Shown: one piece after another, positions 7,147 through 58,496 of the stretch | Layout of the letters: the number at the start of each line of letters is the position of its first letter | Position numbering within the stretch: position 1 is the stretch's first letter | From: an uncultured delta proteobacterium | Lineage (GTDB): Bacteria; Desulfobacterota; Desulfobacteria; Desulfobacterales; SG8-13 | Assembly: GCA_963848135.1 (NCBI GenBank) | Contig: CAWKCK010000003.1 | Span: forward strand, 558,001 to 622,000 | Length of the DNA stretch: 64,000 bases | Reading direction: 5' to 3' | The notes under the pieces: generated by a model | The model's database searches: none | What the model was told of the DNA's origin: nothing | The model's input: the letters and a program-made list of their open reading frames with translations, nothing else | Position numbers and translations under genes: made by a program

Positions 7147-7740
7147 TGCTGAATTGAGAATATCGCACGCATAATAGACAGCGAAAGCGTATTAACCTAA
7201 GAATTTCCGTTTGTTTTTAAATTTAAAGAAACCCACCAGGACTGTCGAATTCTGCCACGCCCACGGTGTTCGCTGGCATTCCGCAATAGACAGCGACAGC
7301 GTGACAATATCTTCCATGTTTTTACGGTGACTACGACCACCACTTTAAATTTTGAAGAGATGGGCAGCTATCAACTAAGCGCTGCGCTTGCGTTTTGCTG
7401 ACAGCATACTCCGGCGTGGCGAGATCCAAGGATACTTGCCCCCCTGCCCGCGACGCATGCCCCAAAAGCGCGAATGGCTTCACTCGCACCGAGTTTTGCC
7501 TTGACATCGAGTACTTATTGAAATAAACGGTTGGGCTGACAATGCACTGATCCGGGAAATATTTACCCCCGGTTCACAGCAACTGTGTTTTTCGCCGGAG
7601 GGAACGACCGATGGGGAGAGAAAAGAGCCACTGTTGGCCGCGTGCCGCCAAGTGGTTTTTTTGTATTTATTGCGGTCGATAGAGGCCCGTATCGTACGGG
7701 AGTAAACCGACAGCACTATGTTCGCATCAAGGAGGTGCCG

Positions 7741-8682
7741 ATGGAAAAGGAAAAACAGTTTTATGAGAGGCTGGCGGAGAGGGGTGTAAGCAGGCGGGAT
7801 TTTATGAAATACTGCACCTTCCTCACGGCGACCATGGGGCTGTCGTCTTCATTCGTCCCTAAGGTGGCCGAGGTGTTTGCCGCTCCTAAACAGAGACCCC
7901 CGGTCATCTGGCTGCATTTCGGAGAATGTACCGGATGCTCTGAATCATTGCTGAGATCACAGTATCCTTACATTGATGACCTGGTTTTGGAAATTCTGTC
8001 ACTCGAATATCACGAAACCGTCATGGCGGCAGCCGGCCAGCAGGCGGAAGACCAGCTTCACATGTCGATGAAAAAGCACAATGGGAATTTTATTTGTGTG
8101 GTCGAAGGGGCGATTCCGACCAAATACGACGGAGGTTACGGAAAAATCGGCGGCCGGACCTTCCTGGAAATTGCCAAGGAAGTCTGCCCGAAAGCCGCTG
8201 CCGTAATAGCGATCGGTGCCTGTGCCACTTATGGCGGCATCCCGGCGGCAGCCCCCAATCCCGGCGGATATGTGAGTGTAAGTGAAGCTATCGGTATCAA
8301 GACCATCAACCTTGCCGGATGCCCTCCCAATCCGGTCAACACGGTGGGCACCATCGTGAATTATCTTCTCTTAGGCAAATTACCGGCCATCGATGATCAG
8401 GGACGGCCGCTGTTTGCGTATGGAAAGACCATCCATGACCAGTGCCCCAGACGGTCCCATTTCGAAAACGAAGAATTTGTCGAGGAGTTTGGATCCGAAG
8501 AAGCGGCTATGGGTTACTGCCTATACAAAGTGGGATGCAGAGGTCCGGAAACCTATAACAATTGTCCGGTAGCCAAATTCAATGACGGCACCAGCTGGCC
8601 GATTGAGGCCGGTGCTCCCTGTCTCGGCTGCAGTGAGCCCAAGTTCTGGGATAAGTTCACGCCGTTTTATGAAGAACTGTAG
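7741..8682 (+). CDS. Periplasmic [NiFe] hydrogenase small subunit (group 1b/Hyn type)
   Basis: Tat signal SRRDFMK; ECTGCSES, GCPP, HDQC, CLYKVGC; SWP (Pro) indicates a medial [3Fe-4S] cluster; no C-terminal TM anchor; GGAGG RBS. Confidence 0.95.
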   Translation: MEKEKQFYERLAERGVSRRDFMKYCTFLTATMGLSSSFVPKVAEVFAAPKQRPPVIWLHFGECTGCSESLLRSQYPYIDDLVLEILSLEYHETVMAAAGQQAEDQLHMSMKKHNGNFICVVEGAIPTKYDGGYGKIGGRTFLEIAKEVCPKAAAVIAIGACATYGGIPAAAPNPGGYVSVSEAIGIKTINLAGCPPNPVNTVGTIVNYLLLGKLPAIDDQGRPLFAYGKTIHDQCPRRSHFENEEFVEEFGSEEAAMGYCLYKVGCRGPETYNNCPVAKFNDGTSWPIEAGAPCLGCSEPKFWDKFTPFYEEL

Positions 8683-8734
8683 GTTATGGTTTAATCGACT
8701 AACATTTCCTTTTTGAGGTAAAGGGAGGACCAAT

Positions 8735-10384
8735 ATGGCTCAGAGAGTAACAATAGATCCAATTACCAGAATCGAAGGCCACCTTCGCATTGAGGTCGAG
8801 GTTTCCGGTGGGAAGGTTGTCAATGCCTGGAGCTCCGGTCAGATGTTCCGTGGCATTGAAATGATTTTACTGGGACGCGATCCCCGCGATGCCCATCATT
8901 TTGTACAGCGTTCCTGCGGAGTCTGAACGTACACCCATGCACTGTCCTCGGTGAGGGCAGCCGAAATGGCCGTTGGCGTCAAAATCCCTGAGAACGCACG
9001 CATTATCAGAAATCTCTTGATGGGCGCGCAATTCCAGCATGACCATCTCGTTCATTTCTACCATCTGCACGCTCTTGATTGGGTGGACATCGTCAGTGCT
9101 TTAAAAGCCGATCCGGCCAAAACCGCTCAGCTCGCAGACAATGTCAGCAATGCCCAGGTCGGTGGAAGCGCTTATTTCAAACAGGTGCAACAGCGGCTGC
9201 AGACCTTTGTCGACAGTGGTCAGTTGGGCCCCTTTTCGAATGCCTACTGGGGCCATCCGGCTTACAAACTGCCACCGGAAGCCAATTTGATGGCCGCGGC
9301 GCACTACATCGAAGCCCTGCGGTTGCAGGCCAGAACCGCCAGGCTGCATGCCATATTTGGTGCGAAAAATCCCCATTTGCAATCTCTGGTTGTGGGCGGT
9401 GTCACATCCGTGAGAGACTTGAGGGCAGACCGCATTGCTGAATTTCTTTACATCACCAAAGAAACCCAGGAATTCATCAAGAACGTCTATATTCCCGATT
9501 TGCTCGCGGTTGCGTCCTTTTACAAGGATTGGGGTGGCATCGGCGGGACGACCAATTTCCTGGCCTGGGGAGAATTTCCTCTGAGTGATGCTGAGCCCGA
9601 AAGTCTTTACATGCCGCGCGGATACATCAAAAAGAAAGATATAGCCGGCGTCAGCATGCCGTTGCAGGACAATGTCACCGAAGACGTTACCCGCGGCTGG
9701 TATGAAAAGGGCGGTGCAAAGCACCCGTTCCAGGGGGAGACCAAACCGATTCAAAAGGATCCCGAGTACCGTCCCGAAAAAGGCCAGTACACCTGGTTCA
9801 AGGCCCCACGTTATGAAGGCGATCCGGCTGAGGTCGGCCCGCTGACACGTGTTTTGGTGGCCTATGCCAAGGGACACAAGGATATCAAGCCGATAGTCGA
9901 CAAGGTCCTCACGGACCTCGGGATTCCGGCAACGGCATTGTTCTCCACCCTCGGCAGAACGGCAGCAAGAGGGATTGAAACCATCGCCATCGGTGACGCC
10001 ATGCAGGGTTGGGTCATGGAGTTGGTGGAAAATGTCAAGAACGGTGATACCAAGACCTACCAGGCCTGGACCATGCCGGACAAAGGCATGGGCGTCGGGC
10101 TGAACGATGTGCCCAGGGGTTCTTTGGGCCACTGGATGGAAATCGAGGGTGGGAAGATAAAGAACTATCAGTATGTGGTCCCATCCACTTGGAATCTAGG
10201 TCCCAGGGATGCCAAAGGCAAACTGGGTCCTGTGGAGGAAGCACTCATCGGAACCCCGATAGCTGATCCGAAAAAACCGCTCGAGGTCCTCAGAACGGTG
10301 CACTCTTTCGATCCGTGCATTGCCTGCGGTGTGCACGTTATCGATCCCGATTCGAACGAGGTTTATAAAATTAAAGTTCTCTAA
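8735..10384 (+). CDS. [NiFe] hydrogenase large subunit with in-frame TGA (codon 64), probably selenocysteine
   Basis: ORFs 8735-8926 and 8951-10384 share a frame. Read-through gives RIEGH...QRSCGV(U)TYTH...VPRG...[11 protein letters not shown] plus a 15-aa cleavable extension. Confidence 0.92.
8924..8969 (+). promoter_or_regulatory. Bacterial SECIS-like hairpin
   Basis: TGA at 8924-8926; stem CTGTCCTC(8942-8949)/GAGGGCAG(8953-8960) with GGT loop; lower pairing CCAT/ATGG. Confidence 0.75.
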
Positions 10385-10393
10385 CTGTCATTG

Positions 10394-10434
10394 ATGCTCG
10401 TCAGCCTGGCCTCTCAAGGACTGACGAGCATCTC
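10394..10434 (+). terminator. Stem-loop after the hydrogenase structural genes (terminator or mRNA stabiliser)
   Basis: ATGCTCGTCAG...CTGACGAGCAT inverted repeat; weak U-tract. Confidence 0.45.
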
Positions 10435-10591
10435 TCCACCAGCTCCCCAAGCCGAGCGGCAAGAAAGGCCTTCGGGTGTTGTGTTCTTGCCGATTCACCA
10501 AGCCGGAATGCTCCCTTTGCCAAGTTAAGATCTTGCTTTGCCGACAACCCGGTGCGCTATAATGGCGGAGCGGCGGGGCTCAGTGAAAACA

Positions 10592-11113
10592 ATGAGCAAC
10601 CCATCCAATCAAATAATGATACTCGGTGTCGGGTGCATCCTTTACTCCGACGAGGGGTTCGGCGTCCGTGTCGTACAGGAAATGCAAAGGAGATATGCGT
10701 TTCCCGAAAATGTCTCCTTGGTTGACGGCGGCGTTTTGGGTGTCAACCTCTTGGGCGTGATATCTCAACCGGATAACCTGATCGTTGTGGATGTTATTCG
10801 CAACAAAGGCAACCCTGGGGATATCTATCGACTTGAAGGTGAACAGATACCCGAACGGATACGAGCCAAAAACTCCCTCCATCAGGTTGACTTTCTTGAA
10901 GCGCTGACCTTGTGCCAGGCTCTGGACAAGGTTCCCGAAACCGTAATAATCGGCGTAGAACCGAAAGATATCGAAACCCTCAGTATCGCGCTGACACCGA
11001 CAACTCAGTCACGAATGGAGGATGTCGTCACAATGGTTCTATCCGAACTGGATCGCCTGGGGATTCCCTATACGGAAGGAAATTCGGAAGATGTGCCTCG
11101 CTATCCCATCTAA
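10592..11113 (+). CDS. Hydrogenase maturation endopeptidase (HyaD/HybD family)
   Basis: LGVGCILYSDEGFGV, VDGG, VVD, SLHQ motifs; adjacent to the large subunit. Confidence 0.92.
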   Translation: MSNPSNQIMILGVGCILYSDEGFGVRVVQEMQRRYAFPENVSLVDGGVLGVNLLGVISQPDNLIVVDVIRNKGNPGDIYRLEGEQIPERIRAKNSLHQVDFLEALTLCQALDKVPETVIIGVEPKDIETLSIALTPTTQSRMEDVVTMVLSELDRLGIPYTEGNSEDVPRYPI

Positions 11114-11336
11114 AATCATCAACATCAAGGACGGTATGGGTACCATTGATGTTGACGGAGTCAGAAGGTCTTGCAGTCTATTGCTACTCGAAGATCCCAA
11201 AGTGGGCGACTGGGTCATTGTTCATGCCGGTTTCGCGCTACATAAAATCGACGAGATTGCGGCAATGGAATCTCTATCGATTCTGAAAGAAGCAGCGGCC
11301 CTTGCCGAAGGGAAAAAACACCCCGATTCGAAATGA
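11091..11336 (+). CDS. hypC: Hydrogenase maturation chaperone HypC
   Basis: MCLAIPSK...VGDWVIVHAGFA. Confidence 0.96.
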   Translation: MCLAIPSKIINIKDGMGTIDVDGVRRSCSLLLLEDPKVGDWVIVHAGFALHKIDEIAAMESLSILKEAAALAEGKKHPDSK

Positions 11337-11440
11337 AATCAGGCGAAGGCGTTGGTGTTTTTGAATAGTATTAAACCAACGCCCATGAGCACGGGCATCT
11401 CGCAATAAATTAAAGGGTAATTGCATGAAAGCTCTGCCTG

Positions 11441-11560
11441 GGGCGGAAGGGGCGACCAGCGGTGAAAGCGGGCACCTGTTTGAATGCATTCGGCAGCGCT
11501 TAAGAAAAGCGCCAACTGAAGCACTTACATATAACAACCGACCAAGCCAGCCCCTAACCT
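11441..11560. repeat. Degenerate/partial copy of the ~200-bp palindromic element family A
   Basis: AAGCGGGCACCTGTTTGAATGCATTCGGCAGC matches the arm of the 62902-63112 copy. Confidence 0.6.
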
Positions 11561-11687
11561 TCTGATTAAATTTTGGTACCCTGTTCTCTGACACATCCTT
11601 ATATGAGATTACGCGCCGCAGTCACTGATGATCATCCCTTCCACGCCAAATGCCACAAAACTGCCCCGAGGATTCAAATAATCCGCC

Positions 11688-13990
11688 ATGGAACATGTTG
11701 CCGCCAGGATTGTGGTTAACGGTATAGTGCAAGGTGTCGGATTCCGTCCGTTCGTTTTCAACCTGGCCAATCGTCACGGCCTCACCGGAGAGGTTGCCAA
11801 CACCTCCTCGGGAGTGGTGATCCTGATCGAAGGTGCTGCCGATCACATCAATGCATTTGCGACAGATCTTACTGCCAAGCCACCTCCTTTGGCGCATATT
11901 GTCGACGTTTCCCGGCGGGCGGTTGCCGTGACCGGTTATTCGGCATTCACAATCATCGAGAGCAGGGGTGATGAGGTGATGTCCACCCTCATATCTCCGG
12001 ATGTTTCCATCTGCGAAGACTGCCGGCGAGAACTTTTCGACCCGAACAATCGTCGCTTTCATTATCCTTTCATCAACTGCACCAACTGCGGTCCCCGCTA
12101 TACCATCATCGAGGATATTCCCTACGACCGAATCAAGACGTCGATGAGGCATTTCGAACTGTGCGCCGAATGCCGCGCGGAATACGAAGACCCTACAAAC
12201 CGTCGTTTTCATGCGCAACCCAATGCCTGCGCCGAATGTGGTCCCCGGGTAACGATTTACGACAACCAGCGCCAACGAATCGACCACCATAATCCCATAA
12301 AAAAAATCGTAACCCTACTAAAGAAGGGCGGTATCATTGCTGTTAAAGGACTGGGTGGTTTCCATCTTGCGGTTGATGCCGAGAACAATGAGGCCGTCAC
12401 CACTCTACGCTCCCGAAAACACCGTGAGGAAAAACCCCTCGCCCTCATGTCACCTAACCTTTCCGCCATCCGGGAATATGCCCATATCACCGATGATGAA
12501 AAGCGGTTGCTGACCGCCATTCATCGCCCCATCGTGCTGTTGAAAAAAAAGGAACCGAATACCATTGCCGCCAATGTGGCGCCCGGCAATCGCTCCTTCG
12601 GGGTTATGTTGCCATACACACCGTTGCACTATCTGTTGATGGAACAGGGGTTTAACGCCTTGGTAATGACCAGCGGGAACCTGAGCGAAGAACCGATTGC
12701 CATCGACAATGAGGACGCTTTTCACAGACTGGCCGGTATTGCGGATGTCTTTCTGATGCACAATCGTGGTATCTACCTGCGCAGTGACGACTCCATCGTT
12801 CGCCATGCCGCCGGGGCAACCCGATATTTGCGCCGTTCGAGGGGCTATGTCCCGGTACCGATTTTTTTGAGGCGTACATCCCCTGTTGTTCTCGGGGTCG
12901 GTGCTGAACTGAAAAGCACCGTGTGCTTGACCAAAGGGAAGATGGCCTTCCTGAGCCAGCATATCGGCGACCTGGAAAATTTGGCCACCAGTGAATACTT
13001 CGAAAAAACAATCGGGCACATGCGACGGATTCTGGAAATAGAGCCTGAGATCATCGCTTACGATATGCATCCCGACTACCTAAGCAGCCGCTGGGCAATG
13101 GAACAGCGGGGTATCAAGAAGGTCGCCGTCCAGCACCACCACGCACATATTGTCAGTGCCATGGCCGAAAATCATGTATCCGGTACGGTGATCGGGTTGT
13201 CCTTTGACGGTACAGGGTACGGCACCGATGGCCACATCTGGGGGGAGAGGTGCTCCTGGTTGATGAGCGGACGTTTGAGCGTGCAGCGCATGTTTCTTTG
13301 CTGCCGATGCCGGGGAGCGCATTTGCCATCAAGCAGCCCTGGCGCATGGGCTTGAGCTACCTCTATTCTGCCTTTGGTGATGATATTGGGAAATTATCAT
13401 TGCCCTTTTTGGACAGCATCGGGACCATCCGAATGTCGACTATTCTGGAGATGATCAGAAAGCGCATCAATTCGCCGCTTACTTCTAGTTTGGGCCGGTT
13501 GTTCGATGGTATCGCGGCTATTGCCGGACTCAGGCAAGAGGTGGCTTTTGAAGGCCAGGCGGCCATGGCGCTCGAAATGATCGCGGATACATCCGCCGGT
13601 GATGCCTATGACGTCCACTGGGAAACCGGACATCCGATCCAAATTCCTCCGGCACCGATCATCCGCAGCGTAGTGAATGATTTGATGCGGGGGACCCCCT
13701 TGCCGATCATCAGTGGGCGTTTCCACCTGACCCTTGTAAAAATTTTCGGCGAAATTTGTGATCATGTCCGCCGGGAGAGGGGGTTGACCCGGGTTGTCCT
13801 CAGTGGCGGGGTGTTTCAAAACGTTATAATGTTGCGCGAATTGATGCGCTATCTTGAAAACCGGAGATTTGAGGTCTACACTCACACACAGGTTCCGACC
13901 AATGATGGGGGAATTTGTCTGGGTCAGGCGGTAGTCGCGGCGGCGCAAACACACTCGCCGACACCAATCCAAGCAACCATCGATCTATAG
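11688..13990 (+). CDS. hypF: Carbamoyltransferase HypF (frameshifted at a G-run near 13240, probable sequencing error)
   Basis: Acylphosphatase VQGVGFR, two CxxC zinc fingers, HHHAH, DGTGYG, DGGICLGQ; G6 where WGGE requires G7. Confidence 0.93.
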
Positions 13991-14048
13991 CCCGCAAACC
14001 ATATGAAATGAATATAGAAATCATCATCAGCTGTTAGGAATACCTAAA

Positions 14049-15140
14049 ATGGCGCTCAAACACATTGACGAATACAGAGATGCCGGGCTGACCGGACCGC
14101 TGGCTGATAAGATTCACCGGATCAACACCAAATCTATCCGACTGATGGAGGTCTGCGGAACCCATACGGTATCGATTTTTCGCAGTGGCGTTCGTTCGAT
14201 CTTGCCGAAGACCATATCACTACTATCGGGTCCCGGTTGCCCTGTCTGTGTAACCGACCAAACCGAGGTAGACGCTTTCATAGCTCTGGCAAAATCCAAG
14301 GATGTCATTCTCACAACCTTCGGAGACCTCATGCGGGTGCCCGGCACGGTATCTTCACTCCAAAAGGAGCGTGCCGAAGGGCGGGACATTCGGGTCGTCT
14401 ACTCAACGACGGATGCCATAGAAATTGCACAAAAGAACCGGGGCAAGAAGGTTGTTTTCTTGGGGGTCGGCTTTGAAACCACGGCACCGACCATCGCCGC
14501 AGCGATTCTTTCTGCCAAGCAGTCAGGTCTCGACAATTTTTTCGTCTACTCTGCTCACAAGCTCGTGCCACCAGCCTTGACCGCTCTGATGTCACTGGAG
14601 GGGGTTATGATCGACGGGTTTATATTGCCGGGACACGTGTCGGTGATCATCGGTTTGAATGGATACCGGGATTTTTTCGACACCTATCGGATTCCCTGTG
14701 TGGTGGCCGGGTTTGAGCCGGTAGATTTGCTGCGGGCGGTTGCCATGCTTGTCGAGCAGGTGGAAAATGGTACACCGGCTCTGGAAAATGCTTACGGGCG
14801 AGCGGTAGCGGAATCAGGCAACGCCATGGCCCAGAGCATACTCGGGCAGGTATTTGAAATAACCGATACGGCCTGGCGGGGAATCGGTGTCATCCCAGGC
14901 AGCGGTCTGAAAATCCATCCGACCTATGCCGCCTATGACGCTGAAAGGGTTTTTTCTTTGGACCTTCCCGAAATCAGCAAGGAACCGGCAGGCTGTGCCT
15001 GCGGCGCGGTTCTCACCGGCTCAAAGATTCCACCTGAGTGCGCACTGTTTAAAACCGTGTGTACACCCATCGATCCGGTAGGTCCGTGCATGGTGTCGAG
15101 TGAGGGGACATGTGCAGCATATTACCGCTACCACAGTTGA
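14049..15140 (+). CDS. hypD: Hydrogenase maturation protein HypD
   Basis: MEVCGTHT, GPGCPVC, GFETT, PGHVS, GPCMVSSEGTCAAYY. Confidence 0.97.
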   Translation: MALKHIDEYRDAGLTGPLADKIHRINTKSIRLMEVCGTHTVSIFRSGVRSILPKTISLLSGPGCPVCVTDQTEVDAFIALAKSKDVILTTFGDLMRVPGTVSSLQKERAEGRDIRVVYSTTDAIEIAQKNRGKKVVFLGVGFETTAPTIAAAILSAKQSGLDNFFVYSAHKLVPPALTALMSLEGVMIDGFILPGHVSVIIGLNGYRDFFDTYRIPCVVAGFEPVDLLRAVAMLVEQVENGTPALENAYGRAVAESGNAMAQSILGQVFEITDTAWRGIGVIPGSGLKIHPTYAAYDAERVFSLDLPEISKEPAGCACGAVLTGSKIPPECALFKTVCTPIDPVGPCMVSSEGTCAAYYRYHS

Positions 15141-15147
15141 AATCGTT

Positions 15148-15278
15148 ATGAGACCTCACATTAAGCTCAATGACTGCGTTGCGAGGGGGCCTTCAAAATG
15201 CTCACGTACTTTCGTATTGTACGCTCTGCTTTTGAAACCCCCTCACGCCGTGTCCTTGAACTTAATCTAAGGTCTCAT
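15148..15278. repeat. Palindromic intergenic element (family B, GTAC-core hairpin)
   Basis: Terminal IR ATGAGACCT/AGGTCTCAT; nested arms around CGTAC...GTACG. Confidence 0.7.
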
Positions 15279-15403
15279 TGCGATTTTGGAGATTGCAATT
15301 GCATCTCAATATTAATAGAAATAATCGCCACCGACGGCATGGTGCAAGAATTCTAAACAAGAGGTTAGCGCTGAAGCCCAATTTAAATATACGGAATTAT
15401 GAA

Positions 15404-16414
15404 ATGAAATTTGACAAGGTGTTGCTCGATCACGGCAGCGGGGGGAAAATTTCCCACAGTTTGGTGACGGACGTTCTGTTACCGGTTTTTGACAACCCAA
15501 TTCTGGCCGATCTTCACGATGGGGCCATATTTGAACTAAATGGCAGACGGCTGGCTTTTACGACCGATAGTTATACCGTCGACCCCATATTTTTCCCTGG
15601 TGGTCATATCGGCGATTTGGCCATTAACGGGACAGTTAACGATATCGCCATGTGCGGGGGGTCTCCACTCTATTTAAGTGTCGGAATGATTATCGAAGAG
15701 GCTTTCCCCATGGCGGATCTGGAGAGGATTGTGGCGGGAATGGGTGCGGCTGCCCGTAAAGCCGGTGTAACCGTTGTCACCGGTGATACCAAGGTCGTTC
15801 CCAAGGGTGCAGCCGACAAGATTTTCATCAACACCTCCGGCATCGGGCTGATCCCGGAGGATGTGGACGTCGGCAGTACCAAGGCCCGTATCGGTGACCG
15901 TATTATTGTGAGTGGTACGGTTGCCGATCATGGCGTTACGATTCTCACGCAACGGGAAGGTCTTACCTTCGAGTCGACACTGACGAGTGACAGTGCTCCG
16001 CTAAATTATATGGTTGCTGACATGCTGGCACTGAAAGGGTCAGTGCATGTGCTGCGGGATCCCACCCGTGGCGGTGTCGGAACGGCTTTGAATGAGATCG
16101 CGCAAAAATCTGAAGTCGCTATCAAGATCGTTGAGGAGCGAATCCCGCTTAAACAGGAGGTGAACGGAATCTGTGAGCTGTTGGGTTTTGACCCCCTCTA
16201 TTTGGCCAACGAGGGCAAACTCCTGGTATTTGTTGCGTCGCACGATGCCGACCGGATGCTTGATATCATCCGTCAGAATGAGTACGGTCATGATGCAGCC
16301 ATCATCGGTGAGGTGGTGGCGGGAAATCCGGGCCGCGTTTATATGCAAACCCGTATTGGCGGCACCCGGATGGTCGATATGCTCGTCGGCGAGCAGTTAC
16401 CGAGAATTTGCTAG
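15404..16414 (+). CDS. hypE: Hydrogenase maturation protein HypE
   Basis: HGSGG, GDTKVV, RDPTRGG, C-terminal LPRIC. Confidence 0.97.
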   Translation: MKFDKVLLDHGSGGKISHSLVTDVLLPVFDNPILADLHDGAIFELNGRRLAFTTDSYTVDPIFFPGGHIGDLAINGTVNDIAMCGGSPLYLSVGMIIEEAFPMADLERIVAGMGAAARKAGVTVVTGDTKVVPKGAADKIFINTSGIGLIPEDVDVGSTKARIGDRIIVSGTVADHGVTILTQREGLTFESTLTSDSAPLNYMVADMLALKGSVHVLRDPTRGGVGTALNEIAQKSEVAIKIVEERIPLKQEVNGICELLGFDPLYLANEGKLLVFVASHDADRMLDIIRQNEYGHDAAIIGEVVAGNPGRVYMQTRIGGTRMVDMLVGEQLPRIC

Positions 16415-16793: not shown

Positions 16794-19700
16794 ATGCTGC
16801 AGAGATTATTCAGGCATTTTTCCTATATAGACTATTTGCAAAAGATCGTTCGCCGACCGGCGGTCGTCGTATTATTAACCCTGGCGATCACCATCATTTT
16901 TGCCACCCAAGTTCCCCGCCTTTCCTTCAAAACTTCCATATATGACCTTGAAATAGAAAATCTTCCAGAAACCGTTCGCTATGACGCTTTCAAGAAGTTG
17001 TTCGGTTCAGACGAGATTATCAGAATTGTCGTCACCGCCGACGATGTTTTTGATCCGCTCACCTTTGGCAAGATCAGTGAAATTGCCAATACACTTTCAA
17101 AGATCGATGGGGTCCGGCGGGTGATCAGCTTGCCGGGAATAAAACAGACGGTCGATCTCTCCGGGAATTGGAGCCTGGAAAAGTTTTTCACGGTCATCTC
17201 TCCGGTTCAATTGTTCAAGAAGTATCTTTTGGCCAGCGAACGCAAAACAACGGCATTGACCCTGGTTCTCGATGGCAAGGTCGATCAGGAACTGGTTATC
17301 CGAAGTGTAGAACAAGTCCTCGCTGCGGCACCGGAGGATATAGCACTCTACCAGGTGGGTATGCCCCTGGTGTCCCAGGCGCTCATGCAATATACCGCTA
17401 ACGATTTTTTCAGGTTGCCCCCGATAACTTTTATACTGATAGCGGCTGTTCTTCTTTTTCTCTTCCGCAAGATTCGTTTTGTATTGATTCCTCTCGGTTG
17501 CGTGACCCTGGCGCTGATCTGGACTTTCGGACTCATGGCCCTTATCAGGGTACCCCTGTCCATGCTCACCATGATCGTGCCCGTGTTTCTCATTGCCGTG
17601 GGTACGGCCTACTGCCTTCACATCATCACGGAATACATTGCATGCCTTCAGCATTCCGACTCACCGAAACAAGCGTGTGTAAAAACTTTTTCGAATATAT
17701 ACTTTCCGACATTCCTCGCCGTCTTAACCACTATTTTCGGGTTAGGATCTCTTCTGATCAACCGTATCCCCGCCATTCGTGAGTTCGCGCTGTTTTCATG
17801 TTTCGGTATGCTCAGCCTGCTGGCCATTACCCTTGTGTTTCTGCCGGCAGCGCTGACGTTATTACCAATGCCCGCTCAAAGACCGCGAGAGGGAGAAAAA
17901 AGATCCAAGACTTACAATCAATTCATCGAAAAAATCATCGATATCAACCTGAAGAAACAGAAGATCGTTCTCCCTATTCTCGCCGCGTTTGCCGTTTTTT
18001 GCGCCGTCGGGGTGTTACGCATCCGAGTAGAGACCAATCCGATCGACTATTTCAAAGAAGACACTTCTGTCAAACGCCATTTCCATGACATACACCGGGA
18101 TTTGTCCGGGAGTTTTCCCATAAATGTCACCGTGGAAAGTAAGGATGACGACTACTTCGAAAACCCCCAAAATGTCGCCGAGATCGAACATCTCCAACAA
18201 TTTCTGGAGACATTGCCCGGCGTTGATAAAAGCCTGTCATTCGCTGATTACATGAAGCTTGTCAATTATGCACTCAATGAATTCAATCCGGAATTCTACG
18301 CGCTTCCGGCTGAAGGCTTTGAAGCGCGAATGGTGATAAACAATTACGCCACCATGCTCGGCGAGGACGTGTTCACCAGTTTCATGAGTCAAAATTTATC
18401 ACAGGCGAACATCGTGCTGCTGACCCATCTTTCGAGCTCCCGAGAATTTCTGCAAACCCGAGACCAAATCATTAAATTCGCAAGACAAAATATGCCCAAA
18501 GATCTTACCGTGGATGTCACCGGTTTCGGAATCGTCATTTCAGCAAGCAGTCATCAATTGACTACCGGTCAAATCAAAAGTCTTTCACTGACGATGGTTC
18601 TGGTTTTTGCCATCATGTTCGCCTTATTTCTCTCTTTCAAAGTGGGATTGATCGCTATTATACCAAACATGTTCCCGATTGTCGTCAACTTCGGGATTAT
18701 GGGATGGCTCGGCTTAGAACTGTCGATGGTGACCAGTCTTATCGCCAGCATCGCCATTGGACTGGCAGTAGATGATACCATTCACTATCTGTTCCGATAC
18801 AACCGCGAATTCAGAAAGGATCTCGATAGCAACCGGGCGTTGAGTGAAACATTGAAACATGTGGGCCGGCCGATCGTATTTACGACGTTGACCATCTGTC
18901 TTGGTTTCTCAATTCTTATATTCTCCAGTTTCAAGCCGACGGCTGTATTCGGCATTATGATGGCCATCACAATGCTCTCGGCCCTTGTCGGAGATTTGAT
19001 TCTGCTACCCTCACTTATGCAGCACGTGCAACTGGTGACCTTGTGGGATTTGGTTCGATTAAAACTCGGCCAGGAACCTGCAAAAGGAATTCCTCTTTTT
19101 AAGGGCCTTTCACGAACCGAAGTGCACTACCTCATTTTGGCCGGATCGTTAAAAAATATCGAAGCCGGTGAAGTTCTTTTTCGAAAAGGCGATCCCAGCA
19201 ATTCGATGTATACGATCATTTCGGGTCAGATGGACGTGCTTGACTCTGTCACTGACGACACGACGTGTTTGGGATCAGCCAGTGATCGGTTGATCAATCG
19301 GATGAAAGCCGGTGATGTACTGGGTGAAATGGGTCTTCTCCGATCGGCACCACGGTCCGCTACAGTTGTTGCCTGCGAGCCGGTAGAACTTTTGCCGATA
19401 AATTGGGCGATGATCAAGCGTTTGCAATGGTTGTACCCGCCGACGGCTCGGAAATTTATGTACAATCTTTTGACGATCCTTTGTAATCGGGTCGAAAGAT
19501 TGACGACGTGCCTTGCCGAAGTTAAGGTTCTCGACGATGCGACCGGTTTGTGCAACAGGGAAAACTTTATTAAACTCCTGAATGGCGAAATCCATCGTTC
19601 GCGATGCTATAAAAACAACCTCTCTCTCTGCTTGATGACGATTGAATTTGAGAGCACTGACGGTGAACTCGACTTATGGCAACAAGAGAGCATACTGCAG

Positions 19701-19967
19701 TCTGTCAGCGAGACACTGATCCACAATGTTCGCGCCTTTGATGTCCTCGGGCGTTGTCATCGTCAACTCTTCGGTTTGTATTTTCCTCAAACACCGCGAG
19801 AGGAAGCCCGCGAGATCTGCATTCGTTTACAAAGCTATTTACAGAACAAGCATTACGATATCGATGGGCTCCAACTGAAGATAACTCTGGGCTTTGCGGG
19901 TTTAGATGACGACCAGATAGCGTCCGCAGATGAATTTATGAAGAAAGCCGTCGAAATGGTTGAATGA
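16794..19967 (+). CDS. MMPL/RND-family transporter fused to a cNMP-binding domain and a degenerate GGDEF domain
   Basis: Two TM blocks with IAVGTAY and GLAVDDTIH; GEMGLLRSAPRSATV cNMP cassette; DATGLCNR...GRCHRQLF in place of RxGGDEF. Confidence 0.85.
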   Translation: MLQRLFRHFSYIDYLQKIVRRPAVVVLLTLAITIIFATQVPRLSFKTSIYDLEIENLPETVRYDAFKKLFGSDEIIRIVVTADDVFDPLTFGKISEIANTLSKIDGVRRVISLPGIKQTVDLSGNWSLEKFFTVISPVQLFKKYLLASERKTTALTLVLDGKVDQELVIRSVEQVLAAAPEDIALYQVGMPLVSQALMQYTANDFFRLPPITFILIAAVLLFLFRKIRFVLIPLGCVTLALIWTFGLMALIRVPLSMLTMIVPVFLIAVGTAYCLHIITEYIACLQHSDSPKQACVKTFSNIYFPTFLAVLTTIFGLGSLLINRIPAIREFALFSCFGMLSLLAITLVFLPAALTLLPMPAQRPREGEKRSKTYNQFIEKIIDINLKKQKIVLPILAAFAVFCAVGVLRIRVETNPIDYFKEDTSVKRHFHDIHRDLSGSFPINVTVESKDDDYFENPQNVAEIEHLQQFLETLPGVDKSLSFADYMKLVNYALNEFNPEFYALPAEGFEARMVINNYATMLGEDVFTSFMSQNLSQANIVLLTHLSSSREFLQTRDQIIKFARQNMPKDLTVDVTGFGIVISASSHQLTTGQIKSLSLTMVLVFAIMFALFLSFKVGLIAIIPNMFPIVVNFGIMGWLGLELSMVTSLIASIAIGLAVDDTIHYLFRYNREFRKDLDSNRALSETLKHVGRPIVFTTLTICLGFSILIFSSFKPTAVFGIMMAITMLSALVGDLILLPSLMQHVQLVTLWDLVRLKLGQEPAKGIPLFKGLSRTEVHYLILAGSLKNIEAGEVLFRKGDPSNSMYTIISGQMDVLDSVTDDTTCLGSASDRLINRMKAGDVLGEMGLLRSAPRSATVVACEPVELLPINWAMIKRLQWLYPPTARKFMYNLLTILCNRVERLTTCLAEVKVLDDATGLCNRENFIKLLNGEIHRSRCYKNNLSLCLMTIEFESTDGELDLWQQESILQSVSETLIHNVRAFDVLGRCHRQLFGLYFPQTPREEAREICIRLQSYLQNKHYDIDGLQLKITLGFAGLDDDQIASADEFMKKAVEMVE

Positions 19968-20164: not shown

Positions 20165-22049
20165 ATGGCTATTGCAACCCAGCTTTTTGGAAGAACCATA
20201 GAAAAGGGTGAAACAATCTTTCATCAGGGTGATCCCGGTGATGAGATGTATATCATTCAATCCGGTGCGGTTGAAGTCTCCAAGTTACGGCAAGGCCGCA
20301 AGGTTGTTTTAACCCTGCTGGAGAAAGGTGATTTTTTCGGCGAGGTCGCCCTGCTCGACAGCAAACCCCGTTCAGCCACGGTTACCGCGATAACCCGCAC
20401 GCGATTGTTGCCGCTAGCGCGCACTACTTTTCTGAAAAGAATCGCATACAATCCAGATGTTGTCTTACGCGTTCTTCGCGCCCTCAGCCGGCGAGTCGAT
20501 CGGATGACCGAAACGATCCGATCGTTGATTGATAGCGATGAAAAGTTACGCCAAAAAGTGTTCTCCAGGAGTTATGACCTCCAAGACGATCAATTACTGC
20601 CTGGCGATAGCATTGTTCAAACCAACAGGAGGCGCCCGGAGTTACCTCAATCAAAGGCTGAAGAGACCCGGCGGGTGTCCCCGCCAATTTTCGGAACAGC
20701 GCGCCATTTTAATTCTCAAAATCCCATTTTCTTCCAACCCAATCAAATTATTTTTGAACTCGGTGATGCCGGCCACAATATGTACCTCATCATCCAGGGA
20801 GTGGTTGAAATTTTTCAAGCCGGGCAAAACGGAGATGACGTCCGCATGGCTCTGCTCGGTCCGGGTGATTGTTTCGGAGAAATGGCATTGATTACCGGCG
20901 ACCCGCGTACGGCATCGGCAAGGGCAATTTCAGCGGTGGCGCTTTTACCGGCGAATCAAGAAGACATGTTCAACGGTATCCGATCCGATCCGGAAGCGGG
21001 TCTTTTTTTCCTCCAGGTCTTAATTAACCGCCTGCGAACCATAACAGAGGCATTGGAACAGCCCGAGAAATCTTTGCAGACGCTTCGGCAGGCGATTATA
21101 CCGGTTATCAAAAGAACCGAGTAGTGTCTCCATCGGCATCAGTTCGCTTTCTTCCTGTGGCGGTTGTACCGCCGTTTTCGTCCGTAATCCACAAGAACTG
21201 AGTTGGATCACCGGCAATATTGATGTCCGCTATTGTCCAATGTTGATGGATCAGGAAAAGATTACGGAGGTAAATTTCGCTGTCGTCGATGGTGCGGTTC
21301 GAACTCGCAAAGACGAAGAAAAGCTCACCGAGGTGCGCCGTAAGAGCCGTTATTTGATTGCTATGGGGACATGTGCCGTTTTCGGCGGAATTCCTGCACT
21401 GGCCAATTCCTACGACCTCGAGGAATTGATTAGCGAGAGTTATGGGCGAACCACGGATCCGTTTTTATATTACCTGGCAGATAATGGGCTTGGAAATGAA
21501 TCTGATACCCCCGACATAGAGGCGCACCTCCAGCGAAAGGTCCGCAATTTATCCGACGTTGTTAAAGTAGACTACTTCTTACCCGGTTGCCCTCCTGCCC
21601 TTGATTTACTGATCGATCTACTAAAGGAACTGAAAAGCGAGCACCCTAGTGGCGCCAACCGGCAGATCGTATGCACGGAATGCGCACGAAACCAAAAAAA
21701 AGGTTCGATTGACACCATTCGGGTATCGCCGACAGCGGATATCGACAAAGAGTCATGTTTCTTGTCCAAGGGCATCCTTTGTTTGGGATTTTGGACGCGC
21801 GGGGGGTGCACGGCAGCATGCCCCGGGGGGGGACTTACGTGCTGGGGTTGCCGTGGACCGTCCAACAACGTCATCGCCAAACTCAACAAAGGAGAAACCC
21901 TTGAAGAAGTAATGCTGCATTCACTCGCTCGCCGTATGAAAAAAGATGAATCGAAGATCAAGCTCCCGATAAAGATCCTTCGACTCAAAGGTGGCAGTGC
22001 CCTGAGTTTTGATCAGAATTTTATCAAGGATGTGTCGAAAATAAGATGA
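20165..22049 (+). CDS. Tandem cNMP-binding domains apparently fused to an MvhG-like (group 3) [NiFe] hydrogenase small subunit; frameshift near 21110
   Basis: Two cNMP cassettes (FGEVALLDSKPRSAT, FGEMALITGDPRTAS). The frame of ORF 21240-22049 is open upstream and encodes SSCGGC, then GTCA..GG, PGCPP, VCTEC, CFL..G..CLG..TRGGC...CP...CWGCRGP. Confidence 0.8.
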
Positions 22050-23347
22050 ATGATAACCTGATATTACGAAAAGCGACCCGCATCGAGGGGAATGCCGACA
22101 TTCATATAGAATACGAAGAAAATCGGTTGAAGTCGGCACGGTTTCAGATTTATGAGTTTCGCGGTTTCGAAAAATTCGTCAGTGGTCGCCGGGCTGAGTG
22201 GGTACCGCAACTGGTATCACGCATTTGCGGGTTATGTTCGGTCGCTCATCAGGTGGCAGGTATACGGGCGGTTGAAAATGCCCTGGGGATCGAAGCCGAT
22301 TCGTGCACGAACAAGCTGAGAGATGTTCTCGTGCTGGCTGAATGGATCAGCAGCCATTCTTTGAGTTATTTTTTTCTTACCGTACCTGATTTCGTGGGTG
22401 AAAAAGGCGGGGTGTTTGAATTGCAAAAATATTACCCCGAAATCTTCAAGGAGGCTTTTGAACTGCGTCAGGCCGCGATGAAGATTATAACTCTATTTGG
22501 GAAAAGAGAAACACATCCGGTAACAATCGGTTTGGGACGATTTCTAGACCCGCCCGGTGCTGACGAATTGAATCTGGCCTGCGATATTGCGGGTGTTGTT
22601 AAAGAAAAACTTCGGACGATCCTTTTAAAAGTATCTTCCCAGTGGCGACTGGAAAAAGCCATCGAATTTCCAGAGGATCTCACGGTCCATTTTGTGGCCT
22701 TGTCAAAAGGTAAAGAACGCGACGACTTTTTTGTGTTTGACCGCAAAGGACAGTTGGTCAGACAGTTTTCGGTCGACGAGTTCGAAGACAATATCGAAGA
22801 AATGAGAGTTGACTGGAGCTTGTCCAAGATTCCTTACATCCATTCACTCGGCTTTCCCGATGGCATAATGCTGGTGGGGCCCCTGTCCCGAAGTTTTCTT
22901 GAAAACGGTTTTCTTTCCGATCCTGAGATCAGGCAGTTTGGAATCAGTGACATACTTATGGATCGCTCCAGTATTACTCTTGAAAGCTACGACGTATGTC
23001 GACTTCTTGAAATGTTTTGGTCAGCAAAAAGAATTGAATTCTTGTTGAAAAGTATCGGCAATTTTGGCTCTCCGCCGGAACCGGATTGGTCGGTTGCAGG
23101 CCAAGGCCTTGGTGCATTGGAAGCGCCGCGGGGACTCTTGATTCACAAGTACCTATTGAAAAACGGGTGTGTCGAGAAAGTCAGGTTGCTGGTAGCCACG
23201 CAGTTTAATAACGCGTTCATTAATTTGCTTATTACCGATCTGGCCCAGCGTCACAGCCACGGCGGGCAACTTACCACCAAAGGAAGCCGGCTAATCGGAC
23301 GTTGCATACGGTTATTGGATCCCTGTTTAAGTTGTGCTACCCATTAA
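22046..23347 (+). CDS. Group-3-like [NiFe] hydrogenase large subunit lacking a C-terminal extension
   Basis: RIEG, FRGFE, RICGLCSVAH, EAPRG, VAT, DPCLSCATH-stop; ATGA overlap with the small subunit. Confidence 0.9.
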   Translation: MNDNLILRKATRIEGNADIHIEYEENRLKSARFQIYEFRGFEKFVSGRRAEWVPQLVSRICGLCSVAHQVAGIRAVENALGIEADSCTNKLRDVLVLAEWISSHSLSYFFLTVPDFVGEKGGVFELQKYYPEIFKEAFELRQAAMKIITLFGKRETHPVTIGLGRFLDPPGADELNLACDIAGVVKEKLRTILLKVSSQWRLEKAIEFPEDLTVHFVALSKGKERDDFFVFDRKGQLVRQFSVDEFEDNIEEMRVDWSLSKIPYIHSLGFPDGIMLVGPLSRSFLENGFLSDPEIRQFGISDILMDRSSITLESYDVCRLLEMFWSAKRIEFLLKSIGNFGSPPEPDWSVAGQGLGALEAPRGLLIHKYLLKNGCVEKVRLLVATQFNNAFINLLITDLAQRHSHGGQLTTKGSRLIGRCIRLLDPCLSCATH

Positions 23348-23352
23348 CTCAT

Positions 23353-23510
23353 TTCCGTCCTTATATGGTCTTATTCCTCAAATTAGGCCTCAACCCGAGG
23401 AATCGCTTGTGCGGCATACGAAAGTTTGCCTCCGCACATTTTCTTGATCTTGCAGAAAATGGCACTTTTCTGGATCGGAAACGGACCCGTTTTCTTTATA
23501 GTTACTTGGA
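23353..23510. repeat. Degenerate palindromic intergenic element (family B-related)
   Basis: TTTCCGTCC...GGATCGGAAA outer arms; central TGTGCGGCATAC...GTTTGCCTCCGCACA hairpin. Confidence 0.5.
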
Positions 23511-39365: not shown

Positions 39366-41585
39366 TTACCTGTCTTCCAGCATCCTGATTTCATCGGTGC
39401 GAACCCGTAGCCGCTGACTCAGCACTAAGGCAATATTTGTCAAAAATTTGGCCGCGACATGGGGGAAATTTCGGCAGAGCGACTGAAAATCGGATTGTGA
39501 CAGCCGATGAACTTCACAATTGTCTTCCGCCCATACATCGGCAGATCGCGGTTTTCCGTCCAGAAAGGCCACTTCCCCGAAGATCGTTCCGGCACTATAA
39601 GTAAACAATCTTTTTTTGCGGTTACTGCTGGGAAGGTTCAATCCGACGCACACCTCACCGCGGGTGAGCAGGAATAAGTCGCACTCAGTTTGCCCCTCTC
39701 GTATGATATACTCTCCCTTTACAAATGTCATTCGATCCAGCTTCGACTTGAATACCTCCAGGTCGCTTGAACTCAACCCTTTGAGGATGTCCTGGGTTTC
39801 TACTTGACCCGGATCCGTTTCACCAGTTGCCGGGTAACTTTTTAAAAGTTCGTCTTCCGCCCATTCAAGCGCCTTGTCCGTATCGACAAAAAAGTATTCC
39901 GTGGGCAGGGCGCTGACAGCACCAATGGCATCCAGAAATCCCCACAATGAATTGTCATTTTCTATGTGGCTGATCAGCAGACATTTGTTACGGTTTTTGA
40001 TGCTTCTTGCCAGCCGGATGAGTATATTGGCACCGGTGCTGTCGATTTCATTGACATGTTTCATATCCAGTATGCAGTAGTCTATTCCGGAAACCTCGGT
40101 TTCGATAACCTGGGCAAGGCGATCCGCCGATCCGAAAAATATGGGACCTTGAAGCTCGAACACCCGAATTTTATGACCGTTTTCCTTGAGGTACTGACAT
40201 TGATCGAGGACCCGGACTTTATTTGAGGTGACGCGATTCCCAGAGTATTGACGCCGAACGATCGAAGTCCCCATCTTGGTTACAAAATAGGCGGTTGAAA
40301 TGGCCAATCCGATGATAACGGCAGTCATAAGATTGGCGCTTACCGTAATAACGGCCACACTGATATTGATGATGAGGGTGACCAAAATGTCTTTCCGGAA
40401 TGCGTTGGGGCGCTGCAGAGATTTTAGCATGCGAACTGTCGAGCGATCGAAAAGGTTAATACCGACAGCAATGATGATGCCGGAAAATACGGCCAGGGGT
40501 ATCCGTCCGATCAGGGGCGCCATGGTCAAGAATATTATCAGAAGCAGAAAACTGCACAGCATGCCCGACATTCTGCCACGCGCACCGGCACGAAAATTGG
40601 CAACCGATCTCGGAATCGATGCTGCTGAGAACAGCGCGCCGAAAAACGAAGCAATGACGTTGCCGACGCCCTGTCCGACGAGTTCCCGGTTACTATCGTG
40701 CCGCCTGCTGTTAAGGCTATCCATGACGACTGAACTGAAAAGAGATTCCATGGAGCCGATCAGGCCGAGTACGATTCCGTATGCGACCAGTTCGGATATC
40801 AGTGCCGGAGAAAAGACGCTCTTGATCTGACGAAAGATATGAACAAATGCTACCGGACCGGGAATGGATGCTTGAAGATTACCGATGGAAGGGGGGAGGT
40901 CTGGTGATTTCAAGACAAGCCAAATGACGAGGTAGACACCGGTACCGCTGAGAAATCCGAACAGCAATGACGGGACTCGCTTTATGTACGTTCTGGACAG
41001 AAAAATGGATATCACTGTCACCAAACCGGTAATTACAGCTATCGGGTTCACGATGGCGGATTCGGCCAGAATTTCTTTCAGGCCGATGCCATTCTGCAGA
41101 CCAAATAAGGCGGGCAGTTGTTTCCAGATCAGTAGTAGGGCAATGCCATTCATGAATCCAGCCACCACCGGATGGGGGACATATTTTACTATGTTGCCCA
41201 GTTTGAAATATCCGAACAGTATTTGGGCGACACCGCCGATCAAAACACAAATCATGGTCAGCCCGACGATCACGGATTGGTTTGAGGCCAGCTGCGGGGG
41301 AAGGTGAGAACCGCTAACAAGGATGATCACAACCGAAGCCAATATTAGTGTGAGTGGCGCCTTGGGGCCAGATATTTGTGCCGGGGTTCCACCGAAAAAG
41401 GCGGCGAAAAAGCCACCGATGATTGCGGCATTCAACCCGATGAGGGCCGCGGTGGGAAAGAATTCCTTACCCAGTGGCGCGAAGGCGGTAACGCCGTAGC
41501 CAATCGCCATAGGAAGGGTGATAATTGCGGCCGAAAGCGCACCGACAAATTCACTTCTGACGTAGAGTGCGTTTTTAGTTGGCAT
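39366..41585 (-). CDS. SulP-family anion transporter with STAS and cNMP-binding domains
   Basis: ISGP, GQGVGN TM core; LQGPIFFGS/EIDSTG STAS; FGEVAFLDGKPRSA cNMP cassette. Confidence 0.9.
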   Translation of the reverse strand: MPTKNALYVRSEFVGALSAAIITLPMAIGYGVTAFAPLGKEFFPTAALIGLNAAIIGGFFAAFFGGTPAQISGPKAPLTLILASVVIILVSGSHLPPQLASNQSVIVGLTMICVLIGGVAQILFGYFKLGNIVKYVPHPVVAGFMNGIALLLIWKQLPALFGLQNGIGLKEILAESAIVNPIAVITGLVTVISIFLSRTYIKRVPSLLFGFLSGTGVYLVIWLVLKSPDLPPSIGNLQASIPGPVAFVHIFRQIKSVFSPALISELVAYGIVLGLIGSMESLFSSVVMDSLNSRRHDSNRELVGQGVGNVIASFFGALFSAASIPRSVANFRAGARGRMSGMLCSFLLLIIFLTMAPLIGRIPLAVFSGIIIAVGINLFDRSTVRMLKSLQRPNAFRKDILVTLIINISVAVITVSANLMTAVIIGLAISTAYFVTKMGTSIVRRQYSGNRVTSNKVRVLDQCQYLKENGHKIRVFELQGPIFFGSADRLAQVIETEVSGIDYCILDMKHVNEIDSTGANILIRLARSIKNRNKCLLISHIENDNSLWGFLDAIGAVSALPTEYFFVDTDKALEWAEDELLKSYPATGETDPGQVETQDILKGLSSSDLEVFKSKLDRMTFVKGEYIIREGQTECDLFLLTRGEVCVGLNLPSSNRKKRLFTYSAGTIFGEVAFLDGKPRSADVWAEDNCEVHRLSQSDFQSLCRNFPHVAAKFLTNIALVLSQRLRVRTDEIRMLEDR

Positions 41586-58377: not shown

Positions 58378-58496
58378 GCGGGTTGCGAGTTGCGGGTTGC
58401 GAGTTGCGAGTTGCGAGTTGCGGGTTGCGAGTTGCGGGTTGCGTGTTGCGGGTTGCGAGTTGCGAGTTGCGGGTTACGGGTTGCGAGTTGCGGGTT
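58378..58496 (+). repeat. Heptamer tandem array (G/A)GTTGCG, about 16-17 units
   Basis: Seen directly between gatC and gatA. Confidence 0.95.

Follow-up and report, generated by a model that had tools for sequence, protein, structure and literature searches.

Hydrogenases are controlled by transcription and maturation. In the H2-sensing [NiFe] hydrogenases HoxBC/HupUV (group 2b), the large subunit lacks a C-terminal extension, a trait that defines this family, and the putative sensory [FeFe] hydrogenases (HydS, groups C/D) are joined to signalling domains and occur near PP2C-type phosphatases. Domains binding cyclic nucleotide monophosphates (cNMP), here termed CNB domains, switch other enzymes and transporters to which they are fused, and Bd1971 as well as the mycobacterial Pat are activated by cyclic AMP (cAMP). 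In the part of the HydDB table that was available, group 2b is listed as histidine-kinase-linked and group 2c, putatively, as diguanylate-cyclase-linked, with no cNMP-linked class among the sensors; [FeFe] group D is termed 'putatively sensory' in one abstract. Here we describe a two-gene module located on a stretch of 64,000 nucleotides (nt) from an uncultured delta proteobacterium of the Desulfobacterales (contig CAWKCK010000003.1, positions 558,001 to 622,000), which is referred to as the window in the following. The module comprises a gene in which two CNB domains are fused to the small subunit of a [NiFe] hydrogenase, written as (cNMP)2-small subunit and split by a single base in this assembly, and the gene of a large subunit without C-terminal extension. 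This arrangement had been proposed in an earlier note on this DNA made from its letters alone, and it is strongly supported by the genomes of relatives and by metagenome loci.

The open reading frame (ORF) at 20165-21124 encodes 319 amino acids (aa) and contains two PF00027 stretches (168 bits versus a cut-off of 27.5), and the Pfam scan revealed neither another domain nor a helix-turn-helix (HTH) family in it. Since the match to the NCBIfam CRP model is confined to the nucleotide-binding part (positions 30-140 of 214), an HTH is lacking. The frame of the small subunit is open from 21045, with its first ATG, GTG, or TTG codon at 21240, downstream of the region encoding the motif SSCGGC; position 1 of the PF01058 profile aligns to the first Cys of this motif and thus upstream of this ATG. 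The large subunit carries the motifs RIEGN, RICGLC, and EAPRG and ends with DPCLSCATH followed directly by the stop codon, and its start overlaps the stop of the small subunit by 4 nt (ATGA). The two-gene unit is predicted to be a translationally coupled operon. Domains of MvhD, HdrA, HoxEFU, FrhB, or HydBG were not detected by Pfam among the genes adjoining the module in the window. The earlier note had already described the two cNMP domains without a Crp-type HTH, the SSCGGC motif upstream of the called start and without an evident start of its own, the retained Ni-Fe motifs together with the CATH end, and the lack of adjacent mvhD/hdrA, hoxEFU, frhB, or hydBG genes, and the Pfam scans, the CRP model, translation, and alignment agree with it in all of these respects.

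Among 40 related genomes, matches to the small subunit lie within open frames of 643-678 aa in G006, G004, G012, and G029. Intact ORFs comprising two CNB domains and the small subunit were observed in G006 (627 aa), G004 (636 aa), and G029 (634 aa), each followed with a 4-nt overlap by a gene for a large subunit of 433 aa ending in CATH. In case of G012, the open frame of 658 aa is read as an ORF of 636 aa, and the large subunit comprises 433 aa as well. The combination of two PF00027 domains and PF01058 next to PF00374, which the earlier note had named as the pattern to look for, was recovered in all four genomes in the form of a fusion followed by a large subunit. The length of the fusion ORF in relatives is approximately 590-670 aa. 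In a large protein collection, the 627-aa protein of G006 matched 482 clusters (E <= 1e-3), and nearly all of the best 120 of these 482 combine PF00027 and PF01058 in approximately 600-660 aa. The source names of the clusters are exclusively 'cyclic nucleotide-binding domain-containing protein' or 'F420-non-reducing hydrogenase small subunit', the former label being given in metagenome-assembled genomes (MAGs) of Desulfobacterales, Nitrospirota, Deltaproteobacteria, and Pseudomonadota. Two further MAGs, one of the Chloroflexota and a second delta-proteobacterial one, also contain full fusions. In a contig scan with a generic CNB pattern, true fusions were restricted to L030-L033 among the matches listed (at least 600). 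In a phylum-wide sample, none of 400 other genomes gave a match at E <= 1e-80. Within the sampled genomes, members of the family are rare and patchily distributed, and sediment, groundwater, and wetland metagenomes contain hundreds of its sequence clusters. As a side observation, two of the clusters, P0116 and P0121, possess an extra N-terminal FHA domain, resulting in FHA-(cNMP)2-small subunit proteins of 726-732 aa.

For a scan of metagenomes, two internal peptides of the large subunits of this clade were used as query, and 80 loci were returned. Since the query peptides are internal to the large subunit, the choice of loci is independent of the fusion state and of the C-terminus. Forty loci are informative with respect to the small subunit: 27 contain a complete ORF with two CNB domains and the small subunit, 10 contain an ORF that is cut at its 5' end and joins CNB and small subunit in frame, and 3 are broken, each at a different place. 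The remaining 40 are not informative, either because less than 60 aa are present upstream with the frame still open (4 loci), because the contig is cut inside the small subunit (11 loci), or because it does not contain the small subunit (25 loci). Fusions were thus observed in 37 of the 40 informative loci, and the stop/start overlap measures 4 nt in 41 of the 53 loci with both ends on the contig. Judged from these sequences, the gene family natively encodes the two CNB domains and the small subunit as a single fusion protein. The earlier note had stated that homologs which always encode the cNMP protein separately and unlinked would speak against its proposal, and the opposite is observed here.

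The break in the window is restricted to a single position. The alignment of the module to G006 extends over 3179 nt and contains exactly one gap, at 21121-21125, and the 2779-nt alignment to the metagenome contig L111 (87% nucleotide identity, 95% identity of the large subunit) likewise contains exactly one gap, at the same spot. At the junction, the window reads ACC GAG TAGT GTC, compared to ACC GAA ATT GTA in G006 and ACC GAA AAT GTT in L111. In metagenome contigs of two runs, which stem from two studies, one base is likewise missing at 21121, the contigs compared at the junction being derived from related strains that are approximately 87-95% identical to the window. After removal of one base, 319 and 308 aa are joined to 627 aa, which equals the length of the intact protein of G006 and is in good agreement with the joint ORF of approximately 627 aa expected in the earlier note. 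The site of the indel suggested there, ATCAAAAGAA (~21110), has to be revised: an indel in this A-run is ruled out by the frame conserved through VIKRTE in the closest relatives and by the position of the gap at 21121-21125.

Similar single-base splits are present in hypF, gatA, mutL, and an ISL3 transposase gene of the window (Table 1). In case of hypF, ORFs of 555 and 246 aa are found instead of the single frames of 765-800 aa in relatives (TGGGG-GGAG in the window versus GGGGCGGGG in G006), and in case of gatA, the Amidase profile is divided over two frames (1-329 and 304-445); both genes are whole in G006. Including the fusion gene, at least five genes in the 64 kb of the window are split by single-base frameshifts, and two of these genes are normally indispensable; consensus errors in the assembly are therefore assumed. 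Accordingly, we presume that the break in the fusion gene is most probably an assembly error rather than a real mutation, and for annotation the split gene of this genome is better treated as such a probable error. Some points speak against an artefact. The comparison is based exclusively on contigs of strains that are approximately 87-95% identical, as the search for reads of the window strain gave none, the best run covering 0.45 of its words; the insertion at the junction lies outside any homopolymer; and a real defect of mutL could itself produce frameshifts.

It is unlikely that the gene is truly broken, i.e., that a recent insertion of 1 nt has separated a free (cNMP)2 protein from a small subunit without a proper start and has thus produced a young pseudogene. 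The TAG codon is present in the assembly, no ATG, GTG, or TTG precedes the first Cys motif, 3 of the 40 informative metagenome contigs are also split, although elsewhere, and the disruption of mutL, if real, would raise frameshift rates. Opposed to this, no other defect occurs over the 3.2 kb of both halves and the large subunit, close strains from two studies lack the extra base, and the essential gatA as well as hypF are split alike, which is biologically implausible. A bypass of the break by programmed +1 frameshifting or stop-codon recoding at GAG-TAG-T is hardly credible. The shift indeed coincides precisely with a stop codon, similar to the case of prfB, but it is absent at the junction in the four relatives' genomes and in L111, 37 of 40 contigs are in frame, a slippery sequence is not visible, and the other splits occur at different places. 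Altogether, the structural inference of the earlier note holds, its indel site does not, and the possibility of an assembly error was not considered there. Apart from this, a contig of low depth (run X1, record 4) lacks 4 nt at 21132 in addition to the single base at 21121, and a stretch of 204 nt is skipped in it (21170-21375); this contig could represent a divergent strain or a chimeric contig.

Table 1. Location of the hydrogenase module, of selected neighbouring genes, and of split genes in the window. G006, related genome; L111, metagenome contig.
Feature	Position	Strand	Detail	Basis
N-terminal half of fusion gene	20165..21121	+	two CNB domains	PF00027 x2, E 3.4e-50
Extra single base	21121..21125	+	creates TAG (21122-21124), splits fusion gene in the assembly	alignments to G006 and L111
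C-terminal half of fusion gene	21123..22049	+	MvhG-type small subunit	PF01058; MvhG 5odc_E
[NiFe] hydrogenase large subunit	22046..23347	+	433 aa	PF00374; MvhA 9sw2_F; tree
Terminator-like hairpin (weak)	23477..23494	+	between large subunit and ApbE	consensus scan only
MMPL/RND-type membrane protein	16794..19967	+	1057 aa, C-terminal cNMP-binding and GGDEF domains	Pfam
Only other [NiFe] hydrogenase of the genome, group-1 type	7585..16411	+	with HycI protease, hypC, hypF, hypD, hypE	
hypF, split	11688-13987		site 13244, one base missing in G run	comparison to G006
gatA, split	58390-60088		site 59598, one extra base	located by comparison to G006
mutL, split	60952-62872		site 61609, one extra base	located by comparison to G006
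ISL3 transposase, split	41750-43020		frame change in A8 run at ~42495	read from the window alone

Both subunits are most similar to cytoplasmic group 3 enzymes. The small subunit matched MvhG (5odc_E) with E 9.8e-50, and all Cys residues in the aligned part of MvhG have a one-to-one counterpart. Since these cluster-binding Cys residues are all matched and are invariant across 43 family members, three [4Fe-4S] clusters are indicated. The large subunit aligned to residues 4-448 of the 472 residues of MvhA (9sw2_F; E 2.7e-56). The top PDB matches of both subunits are Mvh, Frh, the NAD-reducing hydrogenase, and sulfhydrogenase, and group 1/2 chains matched the large subunit solely in its N-terminal 110-160 residues (E 1e-14 to 1e-23). 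The cut-offs of the curated NCBIfam models were not passed, neither for VhuA (168 bits versus 800) and VhuG (165 versus 450) nor for the group 3b models ShyA (152 versus 700) and HydA (111 versus 880), and the diaphorase partners of group 3b, HydBG/ShyBC, were not found as neighbours in the window and the relatives' genomes. A Tat signal is absent from the small subunit, the native N-terminus of which is formed by a CNB domain. The enzyme is accordingly classified, on the grounds of its sequence, as a cytoplasmic group-3 (Mvh-related) [NiFe] hydrogenase.

Among 1.84 billion representatives, a handful of close large-subunit clusters was found (71%, 45%, and 43% identity), followed by a drop to 36%. 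A phylogeny of the large subunit, as proposed in the earlier note together with a HydDB classification, was obtained as a quick FastTree of 132 full-length sequences with midpoint rooting, in which the curated HydDB references are not included. In this tree, the CNB-linked large subunits (9 rows) group together in a single clade with an SH-like support of 100% and a stem of 0.82, and none of its members carries a tail. Its sister consists of two representatives with tails of 13 and 17 residues, and it is placed outside the VhuA-like clade (40 rows, tails of 20-34 residues) as well as outside the ShyA/HydA-like clade. These large subunits are thus assigned by the tree to a separate, well-supported clade beside Mvh/Vhu (group 3c).

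In a 12-row alignment, the Ni-Fe ligands C61 and C64, the proton-gate residue E14, and R362 of the EAPRG motif are invariant. C427 and C430 are present in all rows except for the truncated P0123 and are invariant among 8 clade members, and all four Cys ligands of the Ni-Fe site occur in the window large subunit. An Asn in place of His in the L1 motif was considered as a mark of sensors and dropped, since this position varies widely among group 3 representatives. The stop codon directly follows the His in all 71 assessable metagenome large subunits (71/71) and also in the window. The missing extension is not diagnostic, because several group-3b-like large subunits also lack one. It fits the absence of a second maturation protease, as the single HycI homolog of the genome adjoins the only other hydrogenase, and the large subunit is predicted to mature without C-terminal proteolysis.

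Within the CNB tandem, CNB-A comprises approximately residues 5-125 and CNB-B approximately residues 180-300, separated by a poorly conserved linker. Across 43 proteins of 42-58% identity, the cassette residues G59, E60, R69, and A71 of CNB-A and G238, E239, and A250 of CNB-B are invariant, and R248 of CNB-B is conserved in at least 90%. In sequence as well as in fold, the nearest relatives of solved structure are the paired CNB domains of PKA-R and PKG. In the AlphaFold2 (AF2) model of the G006 protein, both CNB domains reach pLDDT values of 80-90, and residues 136-177 fall below 50, indicating a disordered linker. It is very improbable that these domains have lost cNMP binding and instead recognize a different small molecule or, in a constitutive hydrogenase, function solely in dimerisation or as a scaffold. 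Other ligands are indeed bound by some proteins of the CNB fold, as in case of CooA, NtcA, and CprK, which counts against a role of cNMP in general, and weak matches to NtcA and Fnr-type models were observed here as well. Nevertheless, the Gly-Glu and Arg-x-Ala residues for the cyclic phosphate are kept in both domains in the 43 proteins, the closest solved relatives bind cAMP or cyclic GMP (cGMP), and cyclase and phosphodiesterase-like genes adjoin the module.

The conserved part of the locus is restricted to the two-gene unit. The neighbour counts comprise the 53 metagenome loci in which the flank measures 1 kb or more, four split fusions being removed from the count of CNB proteins. Independent CNB-domain proteins occur in 15 of the 53 loci, class III adenylate/guanylate cyclases in 10, a 255-260-aa protein of the metallo-beta-lactamase (MBL) fold resembling class II cAMP phosphodiesterases (PDE-like) in 10, PP2C phosphatases in 5 (overlapping the large-subunit stop in 3 of these), and universal stress proteins in 4. 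At least one of CNB protein, cyclase, and PDE-like protein is present in 26 of 53 loci. The gene of the PDE-like MBL protein is located within 400 nt downstream and convergent in 9 loci, often followed by a cyclase gene. In L141 (9293-10815), L142, L145, L155, L163, and L127, a PDE-like MBL gene and a class III cyclase gene on the opposite strand converge on the end of the large-subunit gene. The genome of the window contains 22 matches to PF00027 and 16 to PF00211 in 6.03 Mb, and no match to PF02112. Given this low density of matches, a flank of a few kb is estimated to hold such a gene a few percent of the time.

ApbE occurs 3' of the module in the window, in G006, and in the three closest contigs (L111-L113), and EtfAB exclusively in the window and G006. 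Both were therefore rejected as partners of the hydrogenase, a role that the earlier note had left open, as their position is conserved in the closest relatives only. By eye, ApbE looks like a lipoprotein (LGC motif). The consensus scan for terminators, which yielded the hairpin upstream of ApbE, gave 11 sites compared to 6.2 +/- 2.5 in shuffled sequences. Upstream of the module, the position of the MMPL/RND-type protein is conserved in G006 only, and its GGDEF signature appears degenerate by eye. In G029, the module is flanked by a Mur ligase gene upstream and a ketoacyl synthase gene downstream. Genes of SulP-STAS-cNMP transporters are located downstream of the module in G012, G004, and L032, which hints at a cNMP control shared by an anion (sulfate?) transporter and the hydrogenase. 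Such transporter genes were located at 39369-41585 (-) in the window, 16 kb off, and in L023 (1930-6487), L032 (10229-12481), and L117 (9360-13941).

The group-1 type hydrogenase of the window (7585-11333) is composed of a small subunit (7585-8679) and a large subunit (~8849-10381) with one in-frame TGA, which probably encodes selenocysteine, followed by HycI and hypC and then by hypF, hypD, and hypE up to 16411. Away from the module, the genome contains ten matches to PF02662 (MvhD/FlpD domain), five of them with an in-frame TGA, but the number of Mvh-like small subunits in the entire genome is only one. An MvhD-bearing frame of 785 aa ends at 1-343 (+) of the window, beside a 4Fe-4S dicluster protein (434-1579). 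Another fusion was noticed in genome G035 (L025, 8374-13513), where a protein of 610 aa combines a Ser/Thr protein kinase with an MvhG-type small subunit. An MvhD/HdrA-like Fe-S protein is encoded upstream, and the accompanying large subunit (480 aa) possesses a C-terminal extension; the combination of PF00069 and PF01058 is represented by approximately 41 clusters (Desulfobacterales, Planctomycetota).

The module is apparently a catalytically competent two-subunit hydrogenase tethered to two ligand-competent CNB domains. The earlier note had offered two alternatives, gating of the hydrogenase by cNMP and relay of H2 or redox state through the cNMP domains, and these remain the two leading readings. 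We give about an even chance to the first, in which cNMP binding is the input and the hydrogenase the regulated effector. In this case, cAMP or cGMP produced by nearby or other class III cyclases would bind to the CNB tandem, and binding would allosterically switch the hydrogenase, acting either on its activity or on how an electron partner reaches the distal cluster. The electron partner would be encoded elsewhere, and it is tempting to speculate on a ferredoxin or an MvhD-bearing Hdr-like complex. Gating is favoured because the same genomes attach CNB domains to effectors (SulP transporters, the RND protein, PilZ, and sigma-54 activators) and because the bacterial CNB-enzyme fusions Bd1971 and Pat work in this manner.

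Several observations weigh against gating. A working enzyme needs an electron partner, and no redox partner was found as a conserved neighbour in the window, the four relatives' genomes, and the recurrent families of the 80 metagenome loci, nor do MvhD/Hdr genes adjoin the module in any of these; this is its weak point. The lack of an extension, the fusion to a signalling domain, and the PP2C neighbours (5 loci) fit a sensor equally well. Furthermore, the base rate of neighbouring genes is derived from one genome and other genomes may be richer in such genes, the neighbour counts are not independent because the metagenome loci are interrelated, and the AF2 monomer (pTM 0.52) is uninformative on the arrangement of the domains over the hydrogenase.

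The second reading, a regulatory H2/redox sensor, is the main alternative and in our view less likely. Here, H2 would reduce the Fe-S relay, and the redox state together with the cNMP occupancy would set the interaction with a signalling partner such as a PP2C phosphatase, a cyclase/phosphodiesterase pair, or a transcription activator; the hydrogenase would be the input of the circuit rather than a metabolic enzyme. It is consistent with large subunits that lack an extension throughout (71/71), as in the H2 sensors HoxBC/HupUV, with the absence of a conserved redox partner, and with signalling genes, including PP2C, as neighbours. In the window and G006, approximately 10 kb separate the module from the hyp genes and the only uptake hydrogenase, and a group-1 NiFe(Se) hydrogenase is also present in 5 of 5 other module-bearing genomes tested. 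Moreover, an output domain, namely a Ser/Thr kinase, is part of the fusion with a related small subunit. However, CNB domains serve as modules for ligand input, and an output domain is missing from the fusion protein itself; proximity to the uptake hydrogenase is limited to a single genus, the module being situated on other contigs in G029 and G441; the kinase-fused relative looks like an ordinary Mvh enzyme due to its MvhD/HdrA-like neighbour and its extended large subunit; and the missing extension is shared by several group-3b-like large subunits and thus not diagnostic.

Since the fused two-gene hydrogenase is real and widespread in sediment bacteria, it suggests that cAMP/cGMP signalling may act directly on a hydrogen enzyme. 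With somewhat less than an even chance, a nucleotide second messenger directly switches a hydrogenase here, which would be the first such case, or, in the mirror version, the module is an H2 receptor reporting into the cNMP network. If gating is true, cAMP or cGMP on a PKA-R-like tandem would open or close the electron flow from the [NiFe] site and, together with the adjacent cyclase and phosphodiesterase genes, a self-contained circuit would couple H2 use to signalling in sediment sulfate reducers, Nitrospirota, and Chloroflexota. A description of a CNB-hydrogenase fusion was not found in a full-text literature search, subscription journals and preprint supplements being outside its reach, and neither was a description of direct post-translational control of a hydrogenase by a second messenger in the literature searched. 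As a compact system of two proteins, the module lends itself to experiments on the coupling of ligand binding to an Fe-S relay or a Ni-Fe site, and it raises the role of cNMP signalling in cyclase-rich anaerobes, this genome alone containing 16 cyclase-domain matches.

Compared to known systems, the module is closest to Mvh/Vhu (group 3c; MvhAGD with HdrABC; PDB 5odc, 9sw2), which provide the closest solved relatives of both subunits, are cytoplasmic, and share the Cys pattern of three [4Fe-4S] clusters and the Ni-Fe ligand motifs. It differs from them by an identity of approximately 30%, its separate clade, the VhuA model that is not passed, the lack of adjacent MvhD/Hdr, the CNB tandem at the N-terminus of the small subunit, and the C-terminus of the large subunit, as MvhA is approximately 24 residues longer and the window protein has no extension. 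The H2 sensors HoxBC/HupUV and group 2c resemble the module in the missing extension (in case of 2b) and in being linked to signalling rather than to a redox module. Contrary to these, the subunits in the window are group-3-like and the signalling module is a ligand-binding domain fused to the small subunit; a histidine kinase or other kinase was not found as a conserved neighbour in the window, the four relatives' genomes, and the metagenome loci. HydS shows an unrelated catalytic fold and cofactor, and its fused domain is PAS instead of CNB. Similar to PKA-R and PKG, two CNB domains with intact cassettes are arranged in tandem, with the difference that the tandem is joined here to a metalloenzyme subunit, lacks an inhibitor or pseudosubstrate segment, and contains a long linker that is disordered in the model. 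Bd1971, a cNMP-EAL phosphodiesterase (PDB 6hq5), and the mycobacterial Pat acetyltransferase, both of which are among the matches, likewise carry an N-terminal CNB domain on an enzyme, whereas the fused partner in the module is the Fe-S electron-transfer subunit of a hydrogenase. By this comparison, the module is assigned to a distinct group-3 [NiFe] lineage with a new regulatory architecture, which the curated NCBIfam models tested miss.

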